A stretch of DNA of 64,000 nucleotides from Enterobacteria phage CHB7. How positions within the stretch are numbered: position 1 is the stretch's first letter; each line of letters begins with the position of its first letter. Under the pieces are notes generated by a model. That model was given only the letters and a program-made list of their open reading frames with translations. It was not told the DNA's origin and did not search any database. The stretch is from the sequence record MK562504.1; one strand, 5' to 3'. The translations under genes were made by a program, and so were the position numbers. Shown piece by piece: positions 15,485-62,811 of the stretch.

Positions 15485-16341
15485 TATGAACTTCCTTCCT
15501 GTTGAGATTTATCTTTTCTGCCTTTGATGATTTGTGCAACTTCAGCCATTACACCATAACCACCACCTGCGACTGTTTCTTTACCGACGATAAAGTTGTC
15601 GTTACTGTTATTTGTCCTGCTCACATTCAAATAATCTTTTGAAGTGCTTCCAGCAGTTCTGTCAATCCTGAAATAGCCGTCTCTGATACCTGCGTCTGCC
15701 AAGCTACCTAATAAGTTAGCCTCAAGAGAACCACCTGTGTTATTAGTGACAAGACCTTTGTTGTTATCTGTTACAAACCAGTTATCTTTGTCATCAACAA
15801 TAGCTAAGGCTGAGTCAGCAACCTCTACAGGTGTCCAAGCAGTACCATTCAAAGTTACATCTCGTAAGATGACTGCTGAACCAATTGTTGTTGCAGCAAT
15901 CCTTGAAAGTGTGTATGCTGTATCTAGAACGTTATTTCTGGTATTAACACGAATAACAATACCACCAGTCATAGGTGTGATATGCTCAAACACCTGTGAA
16001 AAGGTAGCATTGTATAGTGTCATTACGGCATTTTGAAGAAACGCTGGAGTTGTGTCAGAACGTCTTAGGAAAATCTGGATATACAGCATTGCACGATATG
16101 TGTCATCATCAGCACCGAGTGGTCTTGGTACTTTAATCAAAGCTCCAATATTGTCTAATTGCTGACCAATAGCTGTACGGATATTACGTTCTGTATGCAT
16201 CTGCCAAGTAATATCCTCTAATAATTGTAACTCATCTGTAATAGATTTCAATAGGCTAGTGTAAATAAACTTTTCTTTGAATTGAGTTACAGTTCTTTCA
16301 TCCAATGTTTTGTAATAGACGTCTTCAATCTTTTCAAACAT
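15484..16341 (-). CDS. baseplate protein (gpI-like position)
   Basis: 285 aa; gene order downstream of J-like protein. Confidence 0.5.
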
Positions 16342-16343
16342 TG

Positions 16344-17812
16344 TTACTCCTTAGTGATAGTGTACTGGCTGCTTTCCCATACCGTATACTGGTCACCGTC
16401 AACTGTGATTCTTGCTGTGGTATACTGGTCATCTGATGGTGGTACTGCTTGGTTGTTTGAAAGGGCAACTTTGATTTCGTTGATTTCAATACCTTGAATA
16501 ACATCATAGATATAACCATAGATTCTGTTAGGAATCACATCATTACCAACTTTTAGGGTTCTGCCATAGTCATTAATACCCTGCACAATATTTTCATGAA
16601 TATCTGCTTCAGGGATTGTCAAACTTTCTTCATCATAAAGTGAGTAAGACACTTTCACGAATACATACTTTGGTGTTGGTCTACTAAAGTAAACATTGTG
16701 AGCCAAGTTTCCAAGGTCATATGCAGTACCAAAGATGGAACCATAAGCCCTAATACCAGCAGGTTTCGTATCCCAGATAGCTTGAGCAACGTTATCGTTC
16801 TGACCACCTACAACGACAATCTTGAAAGATTTCGGAGGAATACCATCAGGAGTTGTTGTCTCAGTATCGTTTTCAACACCTGAAGCATCTGACACACCCT
16901 GAACTCTCTTGACAGCAGCAACGATAGCATCTAAAGTACCTACACCAGTAACGGTTAAAGATTCTAGGTAACGTTGACGAAGTTCTGTATCAGTTTCTTC
17001 ATCACGTCCTGTTGTTAGGTCGTATCTGTTAAATACACTATCAAGACCATCTACAGTTGTTTCAATCTCAATCAGAGTTCCTGCCAAAGCTGGCATAGCA
17101 CCAACCTCTTCAGCGACTACATCATGAATTGTAGTAATCTTCGTAAAGCTTAAGAATGTCGTTGCAGTAACAACCATAGGGTTTGTTCTGGCAATGATAT
17201 CTCCTTCATCTTTGTAGATTCTTAGAGATGACCCATCATCAATAACTTCAGCTTTTGCAACAATACCACCATTAATAGCATCTGCAAGCTCATTGAGTAA
17301 AGTTGTGATAGTATCTGAAGAAGTTGGTTGATAAGAGAAAACAACGTTATCAATAATAATAACATAGTTTGCATCAGTACGTAAAGAGTTAACTTCTAAG
17401 ACCGCTTCAACACAGTAAGATGGTGTCAAGGTGAACGTAGATACTGGATAGAAAATATTACCAGCAGTACTTCTTAATCTTGTTGTTGCAGGAATTGAAG
17501 CACCAGTCGTACCAGTAAATTCAGCCTGACCTCTAGTAGCTTGAGCAACATATCTGTAGATTGCGTTTAAGGCTGTGATATCATCTAGGTTGAATCCTTC
17601 AGCTTTATCAATGGTGTTGCCATCATAAATCTCAGACAGAACTTCATGGGTATCTGCCAAAGCTCTTGCTACTGATGCTAAGAACAGACCTAACTGGCTG
17701 TCTTCAGATACGTCAAGGTTTGGGGAGATATCTCTTAAAAGTCTTGCTTTGATATTGTCAAAGATTTCTTGATATCTCAATGTTTGTAATCCTGTTGCGG
17801 TTAATCCAGCCA

Positions 17813-17813
<1 letters not shown>
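16344..17813 (-). CDS. baseplate J-like protein
   Basis: 489 aa; size and position typical of gpJ/gp6-like wedge protein (positional inference). Confidence 0.55.
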
Positions 17814-20969
<3,156 letters not shown>

Positions 20970-34936: not shown

Positions 34937-35012
34937 TTGGAGCGTCGAAAGGGAGTTGAACCCTCATAATCCTGTTTTGCAGACAGGTACATAGCCATTT
35001 CTGTCATCGACG
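34937..35012 (-). tRNA. tRNA-Cys (GCA)
   Basis: Hand-folded cloverleaf; loop CUGCAAA; encoded CCA; U73. Confidence 0.7.
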
Positions 35013-35019
35013 CATTAAA

Positions 35020-35113
35020 TTGGAGGAAGATACCAGACTTGAACTGGTACGCCGATTTCTCGGTTACTGACAGTTTAGCAAACTGTTCCCTTACCTTTTA
35101 GGGTTAATCTTCC
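35020..35113 (-). tRNA. tRNA-Ser (GCU), long variable arm
   Basis: Anticodon stem ACAGT/ACTGT, loop TTGCTAA; variable-arm hairpin CCGA-GAAA-TCGG. Confidence 0.7.
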
Positions 35114-35115
35114 AA

Positions 35116-35850
35116 TTATTTGTTCAAGGCATCCTTCATTTCTGGAGTTGCGATTGAATCAATCACACCAGTTTTACAAGCATCATCAAACCAGTCTGGT
35201 AAGACACCTGCAAGGAAACCATTAATATTAGTTTTCAAGTAATCAGCAATTAACGCTGCTTCATCTGCAATCATCTTAGTGACCTCATTAGCATATGCAG
35301 TAATCTTAGCAATGCCCTGATTAATCGCTGTAACGGCTTGTGAGGCTAAGGAAGAGATAGTGTCTAGTCCTTTATCAATTGCATCTTTTAAGTCGCTTAG
35401 AACGCCATTCACAGTGTCTATGGAGGTGTTAATCAAATCCATAGCTTGTTGACCGTACTCTGTAGCTACTCCCATGATTCCACTAAACGGTGTACAACCA
35501 ACTTGCTCTCCTGCTGCACCCATAACGTTAGAGTAACCTTTAGCTACCTGCATACGTGATGAGAACTCATCTACAGATTTCTGACCGTATTGAGTCAGTG
35601 TGTTAGTTGTCGTTGTAGTGCTTCCAAGGCTCGTTGAGAAGCTACTTAACAAGGCTGTAGTCAAACCAGCAGCAATAAGTTTATCTTTTACTGTAGGGTC
35701 TGATACCGAGCTAATAGAGCTTACTAATGAAGTAGAAGCGGCAATTGTGCCACCAAGGATTGCTGCACCAGTAATAAGAGGGTTAGAAAACCCGTTACCG
35801 GATTTCAGGAGATTAAAAATCTCTTTACCTTGTTCTGTCATCTCTTTCAT
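35116..35850 (-). CDS. hypothetical protein
   Basis: 244 aa Ser/Thr/Ala-rich protein inside the tRNA region. Confidence 0.5.
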   Translation of the reverse strand: MKEMTEQGKEIFNLLKSGNGFSNPLITGAAILGGTIAASTSLVSSISSVSDPTVKDKLIAAGLTTALLSSFSTSLGSTTTTTNTLTQYGQKSVDEFSSRMQVAKGYSNVMGAAGEQVGCTPFSGIMGVATEYGQQAMDLINTSIDTVNGVLSDLKDAIDKGLDTISSLASQAVTAINQGIAKITAYANEVTKMIADEAALIADYLKTNINGFLAGVLPDWFDDACKTGVIDSIATPEMKDALNK

Positions 35851-35867
35851 TAAGCACCTTTTGAAAT

Positions 35868-35944
35868 TGGCGGGTTAGTGGGATTTGAACCCTCTTCTCA
35901 TGTTTTTCAGACATGCGCTTTAACCATATAAGCTACTTAACCCA
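35868..35944 (-). tRNA. tRNA-Phe (GAA)
   Basis: Loop CUGAAAA; 3' end ambiguous by about 2 nt. Confidence 0.6.
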
Positions 35945-35951
35945 TTAAATT

Positions 35952-36028
35952 TGGGGTGACCTACGGGAATCGAACCCGTATAGACCATGTTCACAGCATG
36001 GGTCATTATCCATTTATGATAAGGCCAC
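35952..36028 (-). tRNA. tRNA-His (GUG)
   Basis: Loop CUGUGAA; C73; perfect T stem. Confidence 0.65.
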
Positions 36029-36059
36029 ATGTAAGGACTCTCGTAAGAACCCTTAGAAG

Positions 36060-36135
36060 TGGCAGCAGCGTAAGGATTTGAACCTTAATCTTTCAGCTTC
36101 AGAGGCTGGAGCATTGCCAGTTATGCTACACTGCT
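36060..36135 (-). tRNA. tRNA-Gln (CUG)
   Basis: Loop CUCUGAA; G73. Confidence 0.55.
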
Positions 36136-36142
36136 ATTAATT

Positions 36143-36221
36143 TGGTACTCCATATCGGATTCGAACCGATACATAACACAGATTTTAAGTCTGGCCTCTC
36201 TGCCAATTGGAGTAATGGAGC
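36143..36221 (-). tRNA. tRNA with Leu anticodon UAA, standard length (short variable region)
   Basis: Loop CUUAAAA; A73; about 79 nt, no long variable arm. Confidence 0.5.
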
Positions 36222-36223
36222 AT

Positions 36224-36299
36224 TGGCGGGGGATGTTGGAATTGAACCAACTTCTTCGATTTCAAAGACCGAGGTTTTAACCTTGTAAACTAATCCCCT
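36224..36299 (-). tRNA. tRNA-Gln (UUG)
   Basis: Stem TCGGT/ATCGA, loop CUUUGAA; G73. Confidence 0.6.
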
Positions 36300-36307
36300 T
36301 TAAATCT

Positions 36308-36865
36308 TTACTTTCTTAGTGGATGAATAAAGAATGCCAACATAATTCTTTCCCTTGAAAATGCTCTTTCTTCTGGGACAACACTTTTAAGTTTCCAACC
36401 AACATAAATTCTCCAGTAAAATTGTTTACCAAAGATTTTAATTGACGGGATAAAAGCGAATAAACCCCAAGCATTACTGTTCCACATCAGGAGATAACCT
36501 GTCTGATTATCTTCAGGGTTAGAACTTACGTTGATATTACCTTTCCACTTAGTAACATCTTTTACATCTCTTCCTAATACATGGTAAGAGAAGTTATAAG
36601 CTTTGTTTCTCCAGAGCCATCCAACTCTCTGCATATAAACACCGAGCTTACCAATCTTTCGAATCTTAGCCCATCGTTCAACGTGACCTTTGTCACCATC
36701 AATTGGGTTGTCATAAGTTTCCATCCATCTGAATCCAAAAGGTAAGTGACCTTTCTTCTCACTGTAGAATGGAACCACAAATGGTGCTAAGATTACTGCT
36801 AAGATTGCTGCAAATGGCTCTAGCAAAGCTAGGAAAATCCATGAAGCATACTTCAAATATCTCAT
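36308..36865 (-). CDS. membrane protein, hypothetical
   Basis: ATG 36863-36865 with AGAGG RBS; N-terminal hydrophobic segment; track ORF extends upstream from TTG into tRNA-Arg. Confidence 0.5.
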   Translation of the reverse strand: MRYLKYASWIFLALLEPFAAILAVILAPFVVPFYSEKKGHLPFGFRWMETYDNPIDGDKGHVERWAKIRKIGKLGVYMQRVGWLWRNKAYNFSYHVLGRDVKDVTKWKGNINVSSNPEDNQTGYLLMWNSNAWGLFAFIPSIKIFGKQFYWRIYVGWKLKSVVPEERAFSRERIMLAFFIHPLRK

Positions 36866-36885
36866 TTTAAATAGCCTCTTTAAAT

Positions 36886-36962
36886 TGGTGCAGAATAAGG
36901 GATTCGAACCCCTAACAAACAACTTCGTAGGTTGCTGCTCTATCCGTTTGAACTAATTCTGC
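36886..36962 (-). tRNA. tRNA-Arg (ACG)
   Basis: Loop CUACGAA; perfect 7 bp acceptor GCAGAAT/ATTCTGC. Confidence 0.65.
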
Positions 36963-37124
36963 AATGTTCTTTTGAGATTCCTGTCTAGCTCTCTTCTTAT
37001 CTCTTCTGAGAAAGCGTCTACGATGGTCTGTACGCCATTTGTAGTAATCTTCCTCACCAGCGTGAGAAGCACAGCAACCACAACTTGCAATTTCAACTTT
37101 ACCGTGTCTACCATAAGGCTTCAT
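36912..37124 (-). CDS. small basic Cys-containing ORF overlapping tRNA-Arg (doubtful)
   Basis: ATG with AGGAG RBS right after the preceding tRNA; last 51 nt overlap tRNA-Arg. Confidence 0.3.
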   Translation of the reverse strand: MKPYGRHGKVEIASCGCCASHAGEEDYYKWRTDHRRRFLRRDKKRARQESQKNIAELVQTDRAATYEVVC

Positions 37125-37140
37125 AGGAATCTCCTAAAAT

Positions 37141-37218
37141 TGGTGTTCCAAGACGGATTCGAACCGTCACTAATACAAGGTTTGAGCTTGCATCCTCTGC
37201 CAATTGGGATACTGGAAC
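37141..37218 (-). tRNA. tRNA with Leu anticodon CAA, standard length (short variable region)
   Basis: Stem GCAAG/CTTGT, loop CUCAAAC; A73; D-arm similar to the UAA tRNA. Confidence 0.5.
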
Positions 37219-37220
37219 AT

Positions 37221-37295
37221 TGGTACTCGCTGAAGGACTTGAACCTTCTTCACCAACTTGTAAGGATGGGGCTTTACCATATAAACTAAGCGAGT
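37221..37295 (-). tRNA. tRNA-Val (UAC)
   Basis: Loop CUUACAA; A73. Confidence 0.6.
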
Positions 37296-37391
37296 ATGAA
37301 AAGAGGTCTGAAGTTGTGCCGCTAACTCAACTCCGTGGAATTTGTTACGGTCTTCAGTTGACTCAAGCGGTCTTTCACTCGACCTCTGAAA

Positions 37392-37468
37392 TGGTGCTGC
37401 TCACAGGACTCGAACCTGCATTTCCATCCTTACAAGGGATGTGTAATAGCCAATTATACGAAAGCAGC
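37392..37468 (-). tRNA. tRNA-Thr (UGU)
   Basis: Stem CATCC/GGATG, loop CUUGUAA; A73. Confidence 0.65.
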
Positions 37469-37474
37469 ATTGTT

Positions 37475-37549
37475 TGGAGCATCCAGAGGGAATCGAACCC
37501 TCAACCTCAGTTTGGAAGACTGTAATTTTCCCGTTTAAACTATGGATGC
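37475..37549 (-). tRNA. tRNA-Gly (UCC)
   Basis: Loop CUUCCAA; U73; perfect T stem. Confidence 0.65.
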
Positions 37550-37555
37550 ACTAAT

Positions 37556-37631
37556 TGGTGGAGAAGCAGGGAATTGAACCCTGTACTTAAGTTTGCAAAA
37601 CTTATGTTTTAACCATGTAAACTACATCCCC
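37556..37631 (-). tRNA. tRNA-Ala (UGC)
   Basis: Stem TAAGT/ACTTA, loop UUUGCAA; G3-U70 wobble pair; A73. Confidence 0.7.
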
Positions 37632-37637
37632 AATGTT

Positions 37638-37713
37638 TGGTACAGGTGGAGGGAATTGAACCCATCGTCTTACTGATTAAGAGTCAGCCGCATAACCATT
37701 TTGCTACACCTGC
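37638..37713 (-). tRNA. tRNA-Lys (CUU)
   Basis: Loop CUCUUAA; A73. Confidence 0.55.
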
Positions 37714-37720
37714 ATTAATT

Positions 37721-37798
37721 TGGTAGGAGACAAGGGATTCGAACCCTCAAACACCAACTTCTAAGGATGGTAGGTTTACCAATTACCGTCAATCTCCC
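37721..37798 (-). tRNA. tRNA with Leu anticodon UAG, standard length (short variable region)
   Basis: Loop CUUAGAA; A73; about 78 nt. Confidence 0.45.
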
Positions 37799-37866
37799 AT
37801 TAAATCTTTGTAGAGAACTGCTAAGACGCCAAAGCAACAATGGTATCAAATGCCTTAACAATTCTC

Positions 37867-37887
37867 TAAAAAGACCTAACTGGTCTT
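37867..37887 (-). terminator. hairpin downstream of nuclease gene (weak terminator)
   Basis: AAAGACC-loop-GGTCTTT followed by U-rich tail on the minus strand. Confidence 0.35.
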
Positions 37888-38026
37888 TGCATAGTCTTGT
37901 TTAATCCGGTGACTAGAACCTTTGGAGAGCTTGATATTATCTCTTCTCCGTGACACCTACTAGGTGCTTTGTTGTGCGTGTACGACAATACACGAGGGAA
38001 ACCGAACGCTGTACCAGAGCGTGGGC

Positions 38027-38368
38027 TTAAATCTTTAAGCTAAGTTCAGTCTTGGACTTGACATCTTTAGCTTTGTAGATGACGACTTTATCAAGTGGTT
38101 CAATGTAAACAGCTAAGTAATCAACTTGAGAGTTATCAAAATTCATTATTCTATTTTCATTCTTGTTAGAACGAACTCTTTTCAGTTGCACTCTCCAAAG
38201 TTCACCTCTTTTGACTGATGTTGATTTTACCTCAACAGTCTCAATCAAACCATCTTTGTGAACTAGAAAGTCATACTTTGCATTATCTGTAGCTGGTGAA
38301 TACACTTCATAACCTCTTTTGAGGAAAGCTAATTGTGTAGCAATTTCACCTACTGAACCTTTCTTCAT
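38027..38368 (-). CDS. PD-(D/E)XK nuclease-like protein embedded in tRNA cluster
   Basis: ATG 38366-38368 with AAGGTGGTGA RBS; YDFLVHKDGLIETVEVKS resembles a D...ExK nuclease core. Confidence 0.5.
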   Translation of the reverse strand: MKKGSVGEIATQLAFLKRGYEVYSPATDNAKYDFLVHKDGLIETVEVKSTSVKRGELWRVQLKRVRSNKNENRIMNFDNSQVDYLAVYIEPLDKVVIYKAKDVKSKTELSLKI

Positions 38369-38390
38369 AATCACCACCTTAAAATTATTT

Positions 38391-38477
38391 TGGCAGAGAG
38401 TGCAGGAGTTGAACCCGTACCGTTTCCAGCAGCACCAGTTTTCAAGGCTGGTTGGTCTCCGTTGACCGCCACTCTCT
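38391..38477 (-). tRNA. tRNA-Ser (UGA), long variable arm
   Basis: Loop CUUGAAA; perfect acceptor AGAGAGT/ACTCTCT; G73; 87 nt. Confidence 0.65.
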
Positions 38478-38490
38478 CCGAAACAATCTT

Positions 38491-38573
38491 TGGCATGGGA
38501 CGGAGGAATCGAACCCCTTTGAGTAAGTTTTGGAGGCTTACGCACATGCCTTAGTGTCTTAACATCGTCCCAT
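38491..38573 (-). tRNA. tRNA-Trp (CCA), atypical 83 nt with enlarged D region
   Basis: Anticodon hairpin GTAAG-(C)CUCCAAA(A)-CTTAC; perfect acceptor; G73; extra nt between acceptor and D stem. Confidence 0.45.
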
Positions 38574-38715
38574 ATATTATTTCGAAGCTTACCGTATTAT
38601 CACAACACTGTAAAGCCCCTTCTCAGATTATTTACATGTTCTGGAAAACATGAGATACAGACCACCTCCCTACAGGAAGACCCGCTTAGGTCGTCTAAGT
38701 AATCTGCTAACTATT

Positions 38716-38743
38716 TGGTAGCCAAGGTAGGAGTCGAACCTAC
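38716..38743 (-). pseudogene. tRNA 3' fragment (CCA + acceptor + T arm only)
   Basis: TGG-T-AGCCAAG followed by T arm GTAGG-AGTCGAA-CCTAC; no matching 5' acceptor strand found within 100 nt. Confidence 0.4.
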
Positions 38744-38842
38744 TTACTCTCGAAGGTAGCTAACCTTCAGTAACTTTCCGACTTTCGTACATCTGTTAAC
38801 ATGTATTCAGATGGCTTACTAGTGTTGTCTTGACCATTAAAC

Positions 38843-38919
38843 TGGCACACCCTACAGGACTCGAACCTGTAACTCAGTGCTTAGAAGGCACTTGCTCTAT
38901 CCAATTGAACTAAGGGTGC
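38843..38919 (-). tRNA. tRNA-Arg (UCU)
   Basis: Loop CUUCUAA; G73. Confidence 0.65.
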
Positions 38920-39170
38920 ATTCTTATCTTTAAAGGCTCTCTTAGAAAACCCTTAAAGATGCCCACATTATTAATCATACCGTGGGCGAGTACGCCAAAT
39001 TCTTTGATGAGGGGTTGGAAGACCTCACTGGTGTTTAGCCTATTAAGCTACTGCCAGAAAAACATTATCGTTTGCATTTATTTTAGTTTGCAAAAATAGA
39101 CGCTACGCTAACGAAAACTAAGGTTACTATAAAGTGGTCACATCTGAATGTCAACAACTTTATCGAATTT

Positions 39171-39246
39171 GGTAGTGGTAGCAGGAATCGAACCTGCGAT
39201 GTTCGGTTATCAGCCGAGTGTTATGACCGTCTTAACTATACCACCA
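39171..39246 (-). tRNA. tRNA-Ile (GAU)
   Basis: Loop CUGAUAA; A73. Confidence 0.6.
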
Positions 39247-39248
39247 TT

Positions 39249-39325
39249 GGAGGTTCAGATGGGATTCGAACCCACATTCATAGGGCTTATGAAACCCTTG
39301 CATTACCTTATCTGCGACTGAACCA
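39249..39325 (-). tRNA. tRNA with CAU anticodon (Met or Ile2)
   Basis: Stem AGGGT/GCCCT, loop UUCAUAA; U73. Confidence 0.55.
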
Positions 39326-39403
39326 TAATAAGTTGCCCTTTGGAGAAGAACTATTGAGTGGGTGTTTCCAGCCGCGCAGGTGTTCTTCAGTTAAGGGCTA
39401 ATT

Positions 39404-39479
39404 TGGTAGGAGTGGAGGGATTCGAACCCTTCGCCTGTCAGATTAAAAGTCTGCCGCATCACCATTCTGCTACACTCCC
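39404..39479 (-). tRNA. tRNA-Lys (UUU)
   Basis: Loop CUUUUAA; A73. Confidence 0.6.
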
Positions 39480-39735
39480 ATTGAATCATCTTTGCAGTAA
39501 CCTACGCAAACCTTGCTAAAGGGTTTGTAGAGTCATTTCCTATTAAGCTAATCTAGAATCATGCTAAGGAAATTCATCGGCACTCATGGGACGACATTTA
39601 GCTCCATAAGTCACTGCAAAGAGGATTACCAGACCGTTGTTTATCTTAAGTGCTCCCATTACACCAACACGCCGTAACGTGTGAAGGAATCGAACCTTCG
39701 CCTTTTCTTTACCAGAGAAATAGATTGTTTTATAC

Positions 39736-39765
39736 TTGCTGTAAACGGTCTTCTGTAAATTTGTT
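39736..39765. repeat. inter-tRNA spacer repeat (TGCTGTAAACGGTCTTCTG family), copy 1
   Basis: Same about 20 nt word recurs at 40281-40306 and 40440-40466; CCAGACC word recurs near 39639, 39787, 40238, 40395. Confidence 0.6.
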
Positions 39766-39906
39766 GAGCCAGACCAAGTTTTAAATTTTTCAAAATTAAA
39801 TTGGCTTGAAATTTTTTAAGTTGGCTTGCTGAATTTGGTCTTCTGCTCCTTTAAAGAACACTCGTAAGAACTCTTTAAGGGAGGGGCTAAAAAGCCCTCT
39901 CAAATT

Positions 39907-39984
39907 TGGCGGTTACGAAGGGATTCGAACCCTCATCATCTCCCGTGACAGGGGAGTATTTTAACCAGATTAAACTACATAACC
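39907..39984 (-). tRNA. tRNA-Asp (GUC)
   Basis: Perfect stem CTCCC/GGGAG, loop CUGUCAC; G73. Confidence 0.7.
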
Positions 39985-39990
39985 TTTATT

Positions 39991-40078
39991 TGGTGCGCCG
40001 TGAAGGAGTCGAACCTACCGAGTCATAATGACAAGTGATTTACAGTCACCACCGCTTCCATCTACGGGATAACGACGC
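39991..40078 (-). tRNA. tRNA-Tyr (GUA), long variable arm
   Basis: Loop CUGUAAA; 88 nt; A73. Confidence 0.6.
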
Positions 40079-40148
40079 ATTTTATTCCATTCAGGCTAAG
40101 GACTTGCACCTTACAAATCGGTGAGCATTACGCTTCTCTCCCAAATCT

Positions 40149-40225
40149 TGGCGGTGAGTTAGGGATTCGAACCCTATGCCATTCGGTTAACAGCCGACCG
40201 CACATGCCTTATGTGCTTCCTCACC
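40149..40225 (-). tRNA. tRNA-Asn (GUU)
   Basis: Loop CUGUUAA; G73; perfect T stem. Confidence 0.65.
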
Positions 40226-40306
40226 ATGTTTAGTATTGCCAGACCGTATCTTTTCATTTTTCCTATAAAAATTTTTGAGATTGCTGTAAACGGTCTTCTG
40301 CAAATT

Positions 40307-40383
40307 TGGAGGCGGGTGCAGGAGTCGAACCTGCCGATACCATGCTAATGAGACATGTGAGACGCCCTTTCTCTATACCCGCG
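40307..40383 (-). tRNA. tRNA with CAU anticodon, unpaired 1-72 (C-C)
   Basis: Loop CUCAUUA; first acceptor pair is a C-C mismatch; U73. Confidence 0.5.
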
Positions 40384-40466
40384 AACTTTTATGACCAGAC
40401 CAAACTTTTAAGTTTTCTATGCGCGAAAAGTAAAGTTGTTTGCTGTACTTGGTCTTCTGTCAAATT

Positions 40467-40541
40467 TGGAGTCGTAGACGGGATTCGAACCCGCGAGCAA
40501 CTGATTGAAGGTCAGGTGGCTAACCATTTGCCTTCTACGAC
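40467..40541 (-). tRNA. tRNA-Glu (UUC), tentative
   Basis: Stem CTGA/TCAG, loop CCUUCAA (C at position 33 is unusual); perfect acceptor. Confidence 0.45.
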
Positions 40542-40548
40542 ATTAATT

Positions 40549-40625
40549 TGGTCTCCGTTGAAGGGATTGAACCTTCGACCTCACCGCCCCAAACGGCGCA
40601 CTCTACCAAACTGAGCTAAACGGAG
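40549..40625 (-). tRNA. tRNA-Pro (UGG)
   Basis: Loop UUUGGGG; C1-G72; A73; perfect acceptor. Confidence 0.7.
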
Positions 40626-58220: not shown

Positions 58221-58418
58221 TTTTGAATCTCCAGTTTAGGAAGTGGGCTTGATTGCCCGTCTGATGCAAATACTAAATAACTTTGTTTTGCAGGTCAAGC
58301 AAATTTTTAAAAATATTTTCAGGAATTGCCAGAGAGGAACGGGCACACGACTACCACAAAACATAGCACAAATCAAGAATTATTTTTCAGTTCTCTACAG
58401 ATTTTTCTCTTGACTTTT

Positions 58419-58454
58419 GGGGAGAGGGGGAGTAAGAGGGGGAGAGGGGCAGGG
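58419..58454 (+). repeat. G-tract (GGGG-N3-GGGGG-N6-GGGGG-N3-GGGG-N2-GGG)
   Basis: Five G-runs within 36 nt in an otherwise AT-rich leader. Confidence 0.6.
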
Positions 58455-58471
58455 ATGGCTCTATCTACCTA

Positions 58472-58647
58472 CCTGCACAATTCTAAAATGATTTTTCTTG
58501 CCCGACACTCGCCGGGACTGCACGTTTTGAAAATGAAAAAACTCTTTGGAGTCCACCTGCACAAATTGAAAATGAATTTTCCCTTTGGAGTTCAAAATTT
58601 TCTCTACAGATTTCTGTCCAGACTTTTACCTGCACAATTCTAAAATA
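58472..58647. repeat. 3 dispersed direct repeats CCTGCACAATTCTAAAAT(G/A)
   Basis: Copies at 58472-58490, 58556-58574, 58629-58647; contain the reverse complement of the cassette word CATTTTAGAAT. Confidence 0.6.
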
Positions 58648-58690
58648 AAAAAGCCCTCCTTACCTGAAAAACTTACCAGATAAGAAAGGC
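58641..58690 (-). terminator. rho-independent terminator (10 bp stem, 18 nt loop)
   Basis: Minus-sense GCCTTTCTTA / TAAGGAGGGC stem followed by TTTTTTATTTT. Confidence 0.55.
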
Positions 58691-58721
58691 TTAGCCTATT
58701 GTGAATATGCTACAGAGTCTC

Positions 58722-59504
58722 TTAGTTCTTTGCAGCTAAGAACTTGATATTAGCAATGCCTACAATTGCTTCAGCATCTTTCTCATTTGCTGCAAGAATG
58801 TACACATCAGGTTCACTTCCAAATGTCACTGCACGTTGCATACTACCTTTCAACGGCGGGGTAACTTGAGCGTTACTTAGAGACATTCTCTCAACCGGAG
58901 GGTTACTCCGATGTACCTTGTTCTTACGATGCCTGAAGAGGGTAACTCCATCTTCGTTGACAACGGCTACACCTGCAAAGTATTGTGGCTCACTGTGATT
59001 ACCCCATGTTGACAGAGTATTAAACATTGCCTCTTCAAACACGTAAAGGTAAACATCAACATCTTTCAGGATGTGATTCATAATCACCACAACAGCTTTC
59101 GGGTCAAGTCCACCAATCCCTGCACCAATCATTGGAAGACCAACTTTCTTCAGTTGATTTACTTTGCAGTACTGGTTAAGACTCAACAAAGCACTCTCAA
59201 GAGCATCGTAACGGGCATCTTTACCAGTCTTCAACTGAGTATACAGGTTAGCAATACGTCCTTGTTTAAGACGTGCTACAGAGAGTTTACCAAGCAGTTT
59301 CTGGCAAGGTTTATGCTCTCTTCCTCCTGCTACACGGTAGACTTCAGCATCGGTTTCATAGGCTTTTGGGTAGCCTTTAGAAATCTTATCAGCAATACCT
59401 GCACCCATCAGGTTCATGCAGTTACAACCGTGACCGATGATATCAAACTTACCTTTTTCAAAGTCTGCGAAGATATCACCTTTGATGACTTTTACAATAC
59501 CCAT
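58722..59504 (-). CDS. macro-domain protein (TARG1/DarG-like ADP-ribosyl hydrolase fold) with C-terminal unknown domain
   Basis: N-terminal KGDIFADF...DIIGHGCNCMNLMGAGIA and later GLPMIGAGIGGLDP match macro-domain signatures; 260 aa. Confidence 0.65.
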   Translation of the reverse strand: MGIVKVIKGDIFADFEKGKFDIIGHGCNCMNLMGAGIADKISKGYPKAYETDAEVYRVAGGREHKPCQKLLGKLSVARLKQGRIANLYTQLKTGKDARYDALESALLSLNQYCKVNQLKKVGLPMIGAGIGGLDPKAVVVIMNHILKDVDVYLYVFEEAMFNTLSTWGNHSEPQYFAGVAVVNEDGVTLFRHRKNKVHRSNPPVERMSLSNAQVTPPLKGSMQRAVTFGSEPDVYILAANEKDAEAIVGIANIKFLAAKN

Positions 59505-59505
59505 C

Positions 59506-59724
59506 TTACCATTTCTCCCATGATTCTTTATCTTTAGAAGGCTTCACACGCTGTCCTTCATGGTCTACCCAGATTCCACCACAACCTTCACAGAGTGTTG
59601 GCATAGCGTAACCAGCTTTGAACTCTTCTTCAGAGATAAGACCTTTTAAGTCTCCTGTGTCACGTCCAAACAGTTCGATGGAACAGTCTTTGCAGAAATC
59701 AGCCATTTTCTTTACCTTTTTCAA
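59506..59724 (-). CDS. zinc-ribbon protein
   Basis: CKDC ... CEGC cysteine pairs. Confidence 0.45.
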   Translation of the reverse strand: MKKVKKMADFCKDCSIELFGRDTGDLKGLISEEEFKAGYAMPTLCEGCGGIWVDHEGQRVKPSKDKESWEKW

Positions 59725-60183: not shown

Positions 60184-60453
60184 CTACTTCCTCGTTTTGA
60201 GAACTGCCATAATTTCTTTGGTATCTTCTAAGAACCATGTGTAGTGATTCTCTTTGATTTCTGGATGAGTGTCAATCTTTAATTTGCAATCTCTTCCAGT
60301 ATCTTTCAACTGCGTTGTGATACCCTTCATAAAGATATGACACATCACATCATCCATAACCATCGGCATAAAGTCAATTCGCATGTAAGTATCTTTTGGT
60401 CTTGGAAGAAGTAAATAACCTTCTGTATAGAACAGTTCTGTCTCTTGACTCAT
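60184..60453 (-). CDS. hypothetical protein
   Basis: 89 aa ORF. Confidence 0.45.
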   Translation of the reverse strand: MSQETELFYTEGYLLLPRPKDTYMRIDFMPMVMDDVMCHIFMKGITTQLKDTGRDCKLKIDTHPEIKENHYTWFLEDTKEIMAVLKTRK

Positions 60454-60719
60454 TGCTGCTTATTCCCTAACAAAATCATATCAATCAAATTATTGGCTTT
60501 CATCGTACATTGATAGTACCCATCACGATAAAATTCAAGGGCTTGTGACAAGTCTGTGCCTGTATTACCCTTGACAACATAGCGTGCTTCTTCTTGAGTG
60601 TACTTATCACTTTCACTTACTTGGGAGTTTTTGAACGTAGAGTTCACTTTGTTCATTGAACACCCTGACATAAGTATCAGTAGCACAAATGTTATAAAAC
60701 TCTGGCTTAGTCTTTTCAT
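60450..60719 (-). CDS. lipoprotein (possible o-spanin)
   Basis: Signal peptide with lipobox LMSGC; AAGAGG RBS; start lies inside the upstream membrane-protein gene in a different frame. Confidence 0.5.
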   Translation of the reverse strand: MKRLSQSFITFVLLILMSGCSMNKVNSTFKNSQVSESDKYTQEEARYVVKGNTGTDLSQALEFYRDGYYQCTMKANNLIDMILLGNKQQ

Positions 60720-60960
60720 ATGTCAATACCTCTTTTGTGTGTTTGTTTTTAGCAAGCACATCTTTCAAATCATTTTTGTAATTGGAGCTAAGATTTGCTA
60801 AACCTTCTTGGTAAGCATCCTTAGCAACGCTTATAAGCTTCTGGTTAGTCAACTCTGTCTGAGTAACTTGGTAATCCTTGTAAGAATAACCTCCCCAGAC
60901 ACCTACACCAATCAGAAAAACAACTATGAAAGCTGCTTGACAGAACTCTTTAAATGTCAT
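60613..60960 (-). CDS. membrane-anchored periplasmic protein (possible i-spanin)
   Basis: N-terminal TM helix AAFIVVFLIGVGVWGG; strong AGGAGA RBS. Confidence 0.5.
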   Translation of the reverse strand: MTFKEFCQAAFIVVFLIGVGVWGGYSYKDYQVTQTELTNQKLISVAKDAYQEGLANLSSNYKNDLKDVLAKNKHTKEVLTYEKTKPEFYNICATDTYVRVFNEQSELYVQKLPSK

Positions 60961-60978: not shown

Positions 60979-61001
60979 GAAAAAGGCTCCCGAAGGAGCC
61001 T
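60979..61001 (-). terminator. rho-independent terminator
   Basis: Minus-sense AGGCTCC-TTCG-GGAGCCT followed by TTTTTCGTTTT. Confidence 0.65.
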
Positions 61002-61489: not shown

Positions 61490-62185
61490 TTAGTGTTTGA
61501 TAAGCATTGTGTTAATGTCTGGAAGGATTCGTTTAACCTTCTCAACATTCCTTACTGTATCTTCTATAAAGCATACTACCTCATAGTACGGAAGAATGCA
61601 AGACTGAATCATACGAACTTTCAAACTTTCTGCACTGATTCTGTTTGAACCAAAACCACGCATAAAAAGCATGTAGTCAGTCACAATATGTTTGTCAATA
61701 AACAAATGAGTTGGTACACGTTGAGACTCACCACGGGCAGTTAAAACACCAATTGCAGCACTCTTATGAATGCCTGAGATGATGTTAAAGATGTACGTAG
61801 GTTGAGCATCAACTGACTCAATCAAGTTTGTATACTGTGATAAAGTGCCATCTTCCAGATACGTTGAATTTGTTGGCTTATCAAACTTAGTGAGAACACC
61901 ATCAATATCTGTTAAAACCATTGGCTTTTTCATATCAAGGTCTTTTGCAACCAAGATTAAGCTGTCACGTTTAACGGCTACTGACTTACCTGTTTGAAGG
62001 TCTGTACAGAGAACTGTTTCAGCAGGTGAATGAAAATCTTTGAAGTCACACTCAACAGCCCTTGCAGTATCTGCAAAATCCTCTTTCATAAGGTCTGTCC
62101 AGCTTGCAGCACTGATATCTATAGCCAGAGGATTGATATCGTAAGCGTGACAAAATACCTTATCCAATTGTTTTAATTCGCTCAT
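61490..62185 (-). CDS. HAD-family phosphatase-like protein
   Basis: MVLTDIDGVLTKF matches HAD motif I (DxDG); ATG at 62183-62185 preferred over track TTG start. Confidence 0.5.
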   Translation of the reverse strand: MSELKQLDKVFCHAYDINPLAIDISAASWTDLMKEDFADTARAVECDFKDFHSPAETVLCTDLQTGKSVAVKRDSLILVAKDLDMKKPMVLTDIDGVLTKFDKPTNSTYLEDGTLSQYTNLIESVDAQPTYIFNIISGIHKSAAIGVLTARGESQRVPTHLFIDKHIVTDYMLFMRGFGSNRISAESLKVRMIQSCILPYYEVVCFIEDTVRNVEKVKRILPDINTMLIKH

Positions 62186-62711
62186 GTTTAACCTTTTTGA
62201 TGTTTGTTGCAAACTCACATTGAGCAAGCACCTTCATGTTATTGTACACATCTTGAGAGTATTGTCTAGCTTTTGGAATGCGGTATGAGTATCCTGCATT
62301 ATATGAAGCTAAGACACGCTGTAAAGAGTATTTCCCATTAGGATTACCATGAACCTTAGTCCAGAACTGAAGCTCTTTGTGTGTCTCCTTTGCAGCATAA
62401 TCGAAGTCTCTGATAAGTTTCTTCTTAGCTACGTTTGGGCTAACTTTGTTACGCTTTACAACAGTCTTCAAGTGATTCTGGAACAACCCATAATCGTGAG
62501 TCTTTTTATTTTCAAGACGAAGACCTAACTCTGACTCTTGTAAGGCTATAGCGGCTAAGGTTAATCCCCAACCTTTACCCATCTCTTTCTCACCGTAGTG
62601 ATAAGCTTTAAGCATGTTTGTTTTCTGACTGATGGATAATTCTGGACAGTCTGAAGCGACTGCCAAATGTGCTGTTAAGAATAAGCACAAACCTAAAATG
62701 AACTTCTTCAT
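62160..62711 (-). CDS. secreted lytic transglycosylase (SLT-domain) protein
   Basis: Signal peptide; catalytic-type QESELG and later YGLFQ, ASYNAG motifs; strong AGGAGA RBS. Confidence 0.65.
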   Translation of the reverse strand: MKKFILGLCLFLTAHLAVASDCPELSISQKTNMLKAYHYGEKEMGKGWGLTLAAIALQESELGLRLENKKTHDYGLFQNHLKTVVKRNKVSPNVAKKKLIRDFDYAAKETHKELQFWTKVHGNPNGKYSLQRVLASYNAGYSYRIPKARQYSQDVYNNMKVLAQCEFATNIKKVKHERIKTIG

Positions 62712-62770: not shown

Positions 62771-62797
62771 ATAAAAAAGGCTGCCGAAGCAGCCCTT
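62771..62797 (-). terminator. rho-independent terminator
   Basis: Minus-sense GGGCTGC-TTCG-GCAGCCT followed by TTTTTTATTTG. Confidence 0.7.
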
Positions 62798-62811
62798 TAA
62801 GAATTTACTTA

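Follow-up and report, generated by a model that had tools for sequence, protein, structure and literature searches.

The gene at positions 58722–59504 on the minus strand of the 64,000-nucleotide stretch of Enterobacteria phage CHB7 analyzed here (MK562504.1; hereafter the window) encodes a 260-residue protein in which a macrodomain of the ALC1/TARG1/DarG class, with Gln at the position of the catalytic Lys, is fused to an orphan C-terminal domain. The coding sequence is complete, starts with ATG, and is identified by the open reading frame (ORF) listing, by Pfam and PHROG matches, and as the orthologue of mistaenkt_19; the ORF is present where an earlier note on this DNA had located it. We propose that the product would act as an early-region counter-defence enzyme, namely a Gln-type macrodomain ADP-ribosyl hydrolase of this class. 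Removal of ADP-ribose from DNA, as attributed to the T4 protein Tk.4 (AdfM), is tentatively favored over an Adpp-like phosphatase role, although we give it somewhat less than an even chance. The macro gene is already annotated in public records; what is new is its architecture, a macrodomain with an orphan domain, among the known phage anti-defence enzymes.

Residues 1–157 (59034–59504, minus strand) can be assigned with confidence to a macrodomain of the ALC1/TARG1/DarG class. Pfam Macro (PF01661) matches residues 25–142 at 33.3 bits (cut-off 22; E=5e-8) over profile positions 2–118 of 118, and PHROG 335, labelled 'phosphatase', matches at E=7e-99. The AlphaFold2 (AF2) model, built from 19 homologues, has a predicted local distance difference test score (pLDDT) of 89.6 and a predicted template modeling score (pTM) of 0.87, and contains the three-layer α/β/α macro fold. 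In a Foldseek search against the PDB, this model matched TARG1 (template modeling score, TM, 0.84–0.87), DarG (0.79–0.80), and Poa1p (0.75–0.77) with a probability of 1.00. These results bear out the macro domain that the earlier note had read from three motifs, which are found in the translation at residues 9–12 (GDIF), 24–38 (GHGCNCMNLMGAGIA), and 122–135 (GLPMIGAGIGGLDP). The nearest neighbors in both structure and sequence are TARG1, DarG, SCO6735, Bt_1257, and Poa1p, not the MacroD or PARG types. When a profile of the phage clade was compared with the PDB, Bt_1257 was the best match (E=2e-20), followed by SCO6735 (E=2e-17), both ahead of TARG1, DarG, and Poa1p. The ratio of nonsynonymous to synonymous substitutions (dN/dS) of the macrodomain is 0.02–0.11, which indicates strong purifying selection.

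The earlier note had placed the protein in the TARG1/DarG branch; the fold and class agree with that placement, but the catalytic residues do not, and the change from Lys to Gln had been overlooked. Gln90 (codon 59235–59237), within the motif NLYTQ, occupies the position of the catalytic Lys84 of TARG1 and Lys80 of DarG and that of Gln85 of SCO6735, and Asp125 of TARG1 is aligned with Gly131, so that the Lys84/Asp125 dyad of TARG1 is absent. His25 is aligned with His24 of Adpp from the Vibrio phage Gary, His23 of Poa1p, and the histidine of SCO6735, while Asn28 is aligned with Asn22 of DarG and the asparagine of SCO6735 (codons for His25-Gly-Cys-Asn28, 59421–59432). The alignment of the profile to SCO6735 (PDB 5E3B) matches His24, Asn27, and Gln85 of that enzyme to His25, Asn28, and Gln90, and Bt_1257 has the same His, Asn, and Gln. 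All three residues are invariant in 14 members of the phage clade; among 19 two-domain homologues, Asn28 and Gln90 are invariant and His25 is nearly so. By these alignments, the active site is of the His/Asn/Gln type of SCO6735, unlike that of TARG1 or DarG.

In SCO6735, Gln85 lies at the Lys position; the mutations H24Y and Q85A/E abolish activity, N27S nearly does so, and a water-mediated mechanism has been proposed (PMC9411070). SCO6735 rapidly strips the thymidine-ADP-ribose made by DarT from DNA and protects cells from DarT (PMC9411070). Since both its activity and its mutants have been characterized, hydrolysis by a site of the Gln type is proven. The loop following Gln90 reads Lys-Thr-Gly-Lys, corresponding to Lys89-Thr-Gly-Ser-Lys93 of SCO6735, in which Lys89 is required for activity on DNA (PMC9411070). 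Eight residues separate Gln90 from Tyr99, as in TARG1, and the loops of DarG and Tk.4 have this length too; SCO6735 has 13. In the mechanism that we envisage, the ADP-ribose moiety would be held between the loops His25-Gly-Cys-Asn28...Gly34-Ala-Gly-Ile-Ala38 and Pro124...Gly127-Ala-Gly-Ile-Gly-Gly-Leu-Asp134. The latter is the glycine-rich second ADP-ribose-binding loop (P124-MIGAGIGGL-D134, codons 59103–59135; compare PPLGVGNGGLD of DarG). Asn28 would fix the rotamer of Gln90, which in turn would position the distal ribose and a water molecule attacking C1'', and the attack would free ADP-ribose from whatever that carbon bears.

The likeliest physiological substrate would be thymidine-linked ADP-ribose made on phage single-stranded DNA by DarT2-type toxins, and the protein may thus be an orphan 'antitoxin' that restores replication, like T4 Tk.4/AdfM. 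Removal of thymidine-ADP-ribose has been reported as a unifying activity of this macrodomain class, including TARG1, DarG, SCO6735, and fly Targ1/3. The identity to T4 Tk.4 (40%, 82 bits) exceeds that to Gary Adpp (30%, 62 bits). In all 11 sampled NARP1-adjacent (Adpp-type) macrodomain families, the loop after the Gln is longer by 4–7 residues and has an aromatic residue at Q+3, whereas the loops of the CHB7 protein and Tk.4 are short. In a neighbor-joining tree, the two-domain clade (76% bootstrap) falls among the short-loop phage macrodomains, including Tk.4, and outside the NARP1-adjacent groups. Furthermore, Adpp-type proteins all consist of a single domain, so that the presence of a conserved second one is easier to reconcile with a macromolecular target.

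Several observations weigh against DNA as the target. The deep branches of the tree have bootstrap values below 30%, and loop length is an unreliable guide to the substrate: SCO6735 has a long loop and is nevertheless a DNA hydrolase. As a substrate predictor, loop length is weakened by this case, and it is used here solely to place the CHB7 protein together with Tk.4. Gary Adpp has the same His/Asn/Gln residues, and its H24A mutant is inactive. The DarG profile gives the CHB7 protein, T4 AdfM, Gary Adpp, and the PAK_P1 macrodomain similar scores (36–52 bits). TARG1 also scores similarly, and after this calibration the score was discarded as evidence for a DarG-like function. The evidence for T4 AdfM is genetic only (bioRxiv 10.1101/2025.11.20.689424), and T4 AdfM lacks the basic residues of the loop after the Gln. 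The isoelectric point of the C-terminal domain ranges from 4.8 to 9.2 across homologues, which gives no consistent sign of DNA binding, and its charge was set aside as uninformative.

A close relative, the metagenomic protein P0025 (L010:1250–2269), also weighs against a DNA target and favors a soluble one. It joins a macrodomain, 35% identical and with the same GAGIGGLDPK motif, to a cREC 'cyclic-phosphate processing' domain (Pfam cREC_REC, 30.8 bits; cut-off 27), which suggests that some short-loop phage macrodomains may act on soluble ADP-ribose (ADPR) phosphates. Moreover, this phage lineage has NARP1 (Adps and Namat), a pathway that would gain from an ADPR-1''-phosphate (ADPR-1''P) phosphatase. 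An Adpp-like role, which we consider a serious possibility although not a probable one, would consist of ADPR-1''P phosphatase activity (Poa1p-type chemistry) whose ADPR product feeds phage NARP1, allowing the phage to rebuild nicotinamide adenine dinucleotide (NAD+) when the RES-domain defences aRES phosphorolyse NAD+ to ADPR-1''P. Gary Adpp, encoded between Adps and Namat, is an ADPR-1''P phosphatase in purified form, and without Adpp, NARP1 fails against aRES (bioRxiv 10.64898/2026.01.28.702374). In a variant of this role, the enzyme might recycle ADPR-cyclic-phosphate derived from ADPR-PP, the intermediate of NARP1, or produced by RNA repair of the Tpt1/KptA type; infections with Bas63 accumulate ADPR-cyclic-phosphate, a decay product of the NARP1 intermediate. 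The earlier note had proposed counter-defence by reversal of ADP-ribosylation. This idea has a precedent in T4 Tk.4/AdfM, which is 40% identical and acts against DarTG2, but the equally precedented Adpp/NARP1 role, which is not reversal, was missed in the note together with aRES.

The genomic setting also speaks for the phosphatase role. NARP1 was discovered, and shown experimentally, in the Felixounavirus Bas63 (genes 79–80); in the supplementary tables of the preprint on NARP1, the entries for Adps and for Adps-associated Namat include mistaenkt, SUSP2, and FelixO1. In mistaenkt, Adps (labelled PRPP synthetase) and Namat (labelled nicotinamide phosphoribosyltransferase) lie on the same strand, 7.5–10 kb upstream of the macro gene in the same leftward block, with rIIA and rIIB between the pair and the macro-gene cluster. 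The pair at mistaenkt 15587–18339 would correspond to coordinates of approximately 66997–69749, just beyond the end of the window. The synteny is kept around metagenomic homologues with 35–41% identity, where Namat is followed by rIIA and rIIB, in most loci by a HAD/PNKP-like gene, and then by a small gene and the two-domain macro gene. In addition, each of four Ounavirinae records listed has a single macro gene, aRES is present in E. coli, Klebsiella, and Enterobacter; the window itself yielded no inhibitor of aRES of the aRad1 type. Gary Adpp falls in the same Gln-type phage clade, a NARP1-neighbor macrodomain of a Pakpunavirus scores 81 bits against 82 bits for T4 Tk.4, and 'phosphatase' is a long-standing database annotation.

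On the other hand, the macro gene lies outside the NARP1 operon, 14 genes and approximately 7.5 kb from Namat in mistaenkt. The preprint defines Adpp operationally as encoded within two genes of Adps or Namat (bioRxiv 10.64898/2026.01.28.702374), which leaves the macro gene outside the definition, and its table of NARP1-adjacent macrodomains contains no E. coli or Salmonella phage. The co-occurrence with NARP1 is not independent evidence because it is confined to one lineage. The CHB7 protein lacks the loop extension and the aromatic residue at Q+3 and, unlike the known Adpp-type proteins, is not single-domain; its identity to Gary Adpp is below that to Tk.4, and it is not obvious why a phosphatase of soluble metabolites should require a second, conserved domain. 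That the macro gene supplies the Adpp 'missing' from the prototype NARP1 phages (Bas63 and Felix O1) is doubtful, although we regard this as likelier than a role of the C-terminal domain in binding the defence effector, described below. If it were so, the 15% obtained by counting adjacent genes would understate how widespread NARP1-AP is. The sequence does not separate the AdfM-like role from the Adpp-like role, and a bifunctional enzyme combining them is possible.

The substrate could also be another macromolecule, ADP-ribosylated by a host defence transferase other than DarT2; candidates are proteins (Glu/Asp-linked) and RNA (CmdT-type mRNA ADP-ribosylation, or ADP-ribose linked to phosphate ends). 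TARG1 and SCO6735 also cleave Glu-linked ADP-ribose from proteins, and TARG1 also removes it from the phosphate ends of nucleic acids. CmdTAC, a defence based on an mRNA ADP-ribosyltransferase, is known in E. coli, and the conserved extra domain could select such a substrate. However, an anti-defence role of this kind has been demonstrated for no homologue, the locus holds nothing that indicates a particular transferase, and no phage-encoded ADP-ribosyltransferase partner was found in the neighborhood of the macro gene. We therefore regard this alternative as improbable. No DarT gene was found near the macro gene; the neighbors are small phage genes, spanins, and the HAD/PNKP-like gene.

The C-terminal domain (residues 158–260; 58725–59033, minus strand) is a folded unit of 103 residues, β-rich with one helix, and its block-mean pLDDT in the full-length model is approximately 79–94. 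The earlier note, which put the C-terminal region at roughly 110 residues, was correct about the fusion, and no relative of the region was detected. A Pfam scan of this domain in 14 homologues gave only scattered single matches (E≥0.025), none of which recurred; PADLOC and NCBIfam, searched with the full-length protein, matched the macro part and left the C-terminal domain unmatched; and a Foldseek search of the domain against BFVD returned only the SUSP2 orthologue. When a hidden Markov model profile was run against 1.84 billion representative proteins, the 12 matches consisted of the two-domain family, two fragments of it (114 residues, overlapping the macro end, and 54 residues of C-terminal sequence only), and repeat-protein noise. 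The domain was detected in only approximately six to eight of these 1.84 billion entries and, save for the one short C-terminal-only fragment, is always fused to the macrodomain. Only Ounavirinae-like phages have it, and only joined to this macrodomain. The possibility of a divergent cREC domain like that of P0025 was rejected (hhalign probability 0.3%), as was an aRad1-type aRES inhibitor in this domain or elsewhere in the window, for which tblastn gave nothing below E=1.

In the comparison with the Felixounavirus orthologue JLBYU28, dN/dS is 0.26 for the C-terminal domain and 0.11 for the macrodomain; the C-terminal domain is under purifying selection and evolves faster than the macrodomain. 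The pTM of 0.87 indicates that it packs in a fixed manner on the macrodomain. Only Pro173, Gly178, and Tyr235 are invariant or nearly invariant in this domain, which argues for a binding or structural role over catalysis. Since conserved polar catalytic residues are absent, the domain, packed rigidly on the macrodomain, would serve for binding or targeting, as a module specific to the lineage, and not as a second enzyme. A further idea, which we consider rather unlikely, is that it may form a new module binding the defence effector itself; the protein would then be two-pronged, with DarT2 or aRES bound and blocked by the C-terminal domain while the macrodomain removes what these enzymes make (ADPR-1''P, or ADP-ribose on DNA). 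If this were true, the phage would have re-invented the logic of the DarG antitoxin with an unrelated second domain.

The rapid evolution of the C-terminal domain, approximately 2.4 times that of the macrodomain, as is often seen for interaction surfaces in an arms race, is also what might be expected of a mainly non-catalytic protein. Such a protein would bind or sponge ADP-ribose-derived signals (e.g., the cyclic ADPR of Thoeris), or its C-terminal domain would be a stoichiometric inhibitor of a defence, with the macrodomain only recognizing ADP-ribose. Forms of SCO6735, DarG, and TARG1 that have lost catalysis can still inhibit DarT through interaction. However, the His/Asn/Gln residues are kept across the clade, the macrodomain is under the strong purifying selection described above, and there is no similarity to known sponges or to aRad1. 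We consider a non-catalytic role very unlikely.

The region is 97% identical to those of three phages, mistaenkt and SUSP2 of Escherichia and PC79-13 of Salmonella. By its record, mistaenkt is classed as Suspvirus in the Ounavirinae, the Felix-O1-like myoviruses, and the window is placed there as well. Public labels of the gene vary: mistaenkt_19 is a 'putative phosphatase', other records give 'O-acetyl-ADP-ribose deacetylase' or 'macro domain protein', and the SUSP2 orthologue is a 'Macro domain-containing protein' in UniProt. A full-length homologue is found in 264 phage records, and the macro part alone in approximately 2,500 more, mostly of T4-like phages.

The macro gene closes a tightly packed leftward cluster. 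Its ATG lies one nucleotide past the TAA of an upstream gene, and a Shine-Dalgarno-like GGGAG (59515–59519, minus strand) is located 10 nucleotides upstream of the ATG, within the 3' end of that gene. As the earlier note had it, the gene ends an operon with its own strong terminator. This intrinsic terminator (58641–58692, minus strand; 17-bp stem, 8-nucleotide loop, and T-run) begins 30 nucleotides past the stop codon; at 58692–58651 (minus strand) it has the stem, with six G-C pairs, followed by TTTTTTATTTTA. It is the best terminator-like site in the 8 kb scanned. The leftward block also contains spanins, several small genes, and the HAD/PNKP-like gene.

The upstream gene (59506–59724, minus strand) encodes 72 residues, or 66 if the annotated ATG is the start; the product contains two CxxC pairs (CKDC...CEGC) and is probably a zinc ribbon. 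It is 45% identical to the product of the equivalent gene in one distant syntenic contig (L005), while two others (L003 and L004) have other small genes in this slot. It is therefore probably not an obligate partner of the macro gene, since not all of the syntenic loci have a homologue and just a part of the lineage conserves it.

Directly past the macro terminator is an ORF-poor segment of approximately 330 bp (58330–58660). It contains four direct copies of a motif of approximately 27 nucleotides (ACCTGCACAA.T..AAAATGA) at 58362, 58471, 58555, and 58628; TTCTCTACAGATTT is present two to three times. An Rfam search of this ORF-free stretch gave no match, and the mistaenkt record annotates a doubtful 102-residue ORF on the plus strand of the equivalent segment. 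The repeats may be promoter or regulatory boxes repeated between two leftward transcription units.

Farther upstream, the gene at 61490–62227 (minus strand) encodes a HAD-type phosphatase whose match to the phosphatase domain of PNKP is weak and, at 18 bits, falls short of the cut-off. Its counterpart in mistaenkt is labelled 'polynucleotide kinase' and adjoins a gene labelled 'endoribonuclease'. In the distant loci L003–L005, a HAD_PNKP-matching gene occupies the same position, and L012 has a similar-sized unannotated gene there. The gene could be part of an RNA-repair or nucleotide-processing module. Two more strong terminator-like hairpins on the minus strand, at 60984–61001 (GGCTCC-TTCG-GGAGCC) and 62775–62798 (GGGCTGC-TTCG-GCAGCC), split the leftward block upstream of the macro gene, and the spanin genes (60450–60960) lie between the former and the macro gene. 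Elsewhere in the window, 24 tRNA genes are clustered at 34938–40625 (minus strand), which is typical of Felix-O1-like phages.

Macrodomains are the commonest ADP-ribose-processing domains of phages and occur in approximately 41% of myoviruses. Concrete anti-defence roles of phage macrodomains were shown only in 2025–2026, namely AdfM against DarTG2 and Adpp against aRES. For the Felix-O1/Bas63 group, in which NARP1 was discovered, Cas13a deletions and PhageMaP libraries make genetic work feasible. PhageMaP was applied to Bas63 with 33 defence systems; DarT is unmentioned in that paper, and the macro gene is not among the genes reported there. The role of the group's single macrodomain would tell whether resistance to RES-type phosphorolysis of NAD+ already exists in the prototype NARP1 phages and whether the sequence of a Gln-type macrodomain predicts its substrate. 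As a candidate for a new interaction module, the C-terminal domain is a clean case. These findings extend a known theme and do not overturn the current understanding.

Among the known systems, human TARG1 (OARD1) is the best structural match (TM up to 0.87) and the best single-sequence PDB match and has an MGAGIA loop in common with the CHB7 protein, but it is only 24% identical and its Lys84/Asp125 dyad is replaced by Gln90 and Gly131. The yeast ADPR-1''P phosphatase Poa1p (PDB 6LFQ) belongs to the same class (TM 0.75–0.77), with His23 corresponding to His25 in a shared H.CNC motif. However, it is 24% identical, has a Ser at the Gln90 position and a long insertion, and its Ser30 and Phe152, which together with His23 are the residues probed in the solved Poa1p mutants, align with Leu32 and Gly131. 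SCO6735 (PDB 5E3B) and Bt_1257 (PDB 2FG1/2AFC) have the His, Asn, and Gln aligned and are the best PDB sequence matches of the clade profile; unlike the CHB7 protein, they are cellular and single-domain, and the 'mobile loop' after the Gln is five residues longer.

DarG of DarTG2 resembles the CHB7 protein in its macro fold (TM 0.79–0.80), in Asn22 at the position of Asn28, in the G-x-G-x-G-G-L loop, and in joining a macrodomain to a second domain. It differs in having Lys80 where the CHB7 protein has Gln, and in a C-terminal region that the CHB7 protein's C-terminal domain does not match; the NCBIfam DarG profile NF048014 gives the CHB7 protein 45.2 bits against a cut-off of 250 and covers only profile positions 3–149 of 338. 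PhiKZ gp104, also named AdfM, is a true DarG2-like enzyme (Asn23/Lys78) that removes DarT2 marks in vitro, and it keeps Lys78 at the position of the Gln.

Adpp of Gary, a phage that carries NARP1, is a member of the Gln-type phage clade and has the His/Asn/Gln residues. Unlike the CHB7 protein, to which it is 30% identical, Gary Adpp is single-domain, lies within the NARP1 operon, and has a post-Gln loop longer by seven residues (QYHWHAHKVAPGRNTDY); its sequence was taken from the supplementary table of the preprint (bioRxiv 10.64898/2026.01.28.702374). A transposon screen and a clean knockout showed that T4 needs tk.4, named AdfM, to grow on DarTG2, a phenotype described for T4 only (bioRxiv 10.1101/2025.11.20.689424). 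Tk.4, whose sequence was taken from the T4 record, is a single domain of 155 residues and lacks the C-terminal domain, the insertion at residues 55–66, and the basic residues after the Gln. T4 is not known to have NARP1. Tk.4 is also a phage orphan macrodomain and is the closest characterized relative of the CHB7 protein (40% identity over 134 residues, 82 bits; E=2e-23 in a small database), with the motifs HGCNC...MG.G.A, NLYTQ, and IGAGIG, the replacement of the catalytic Lys by Gln, and the short post-Gln loop in common.

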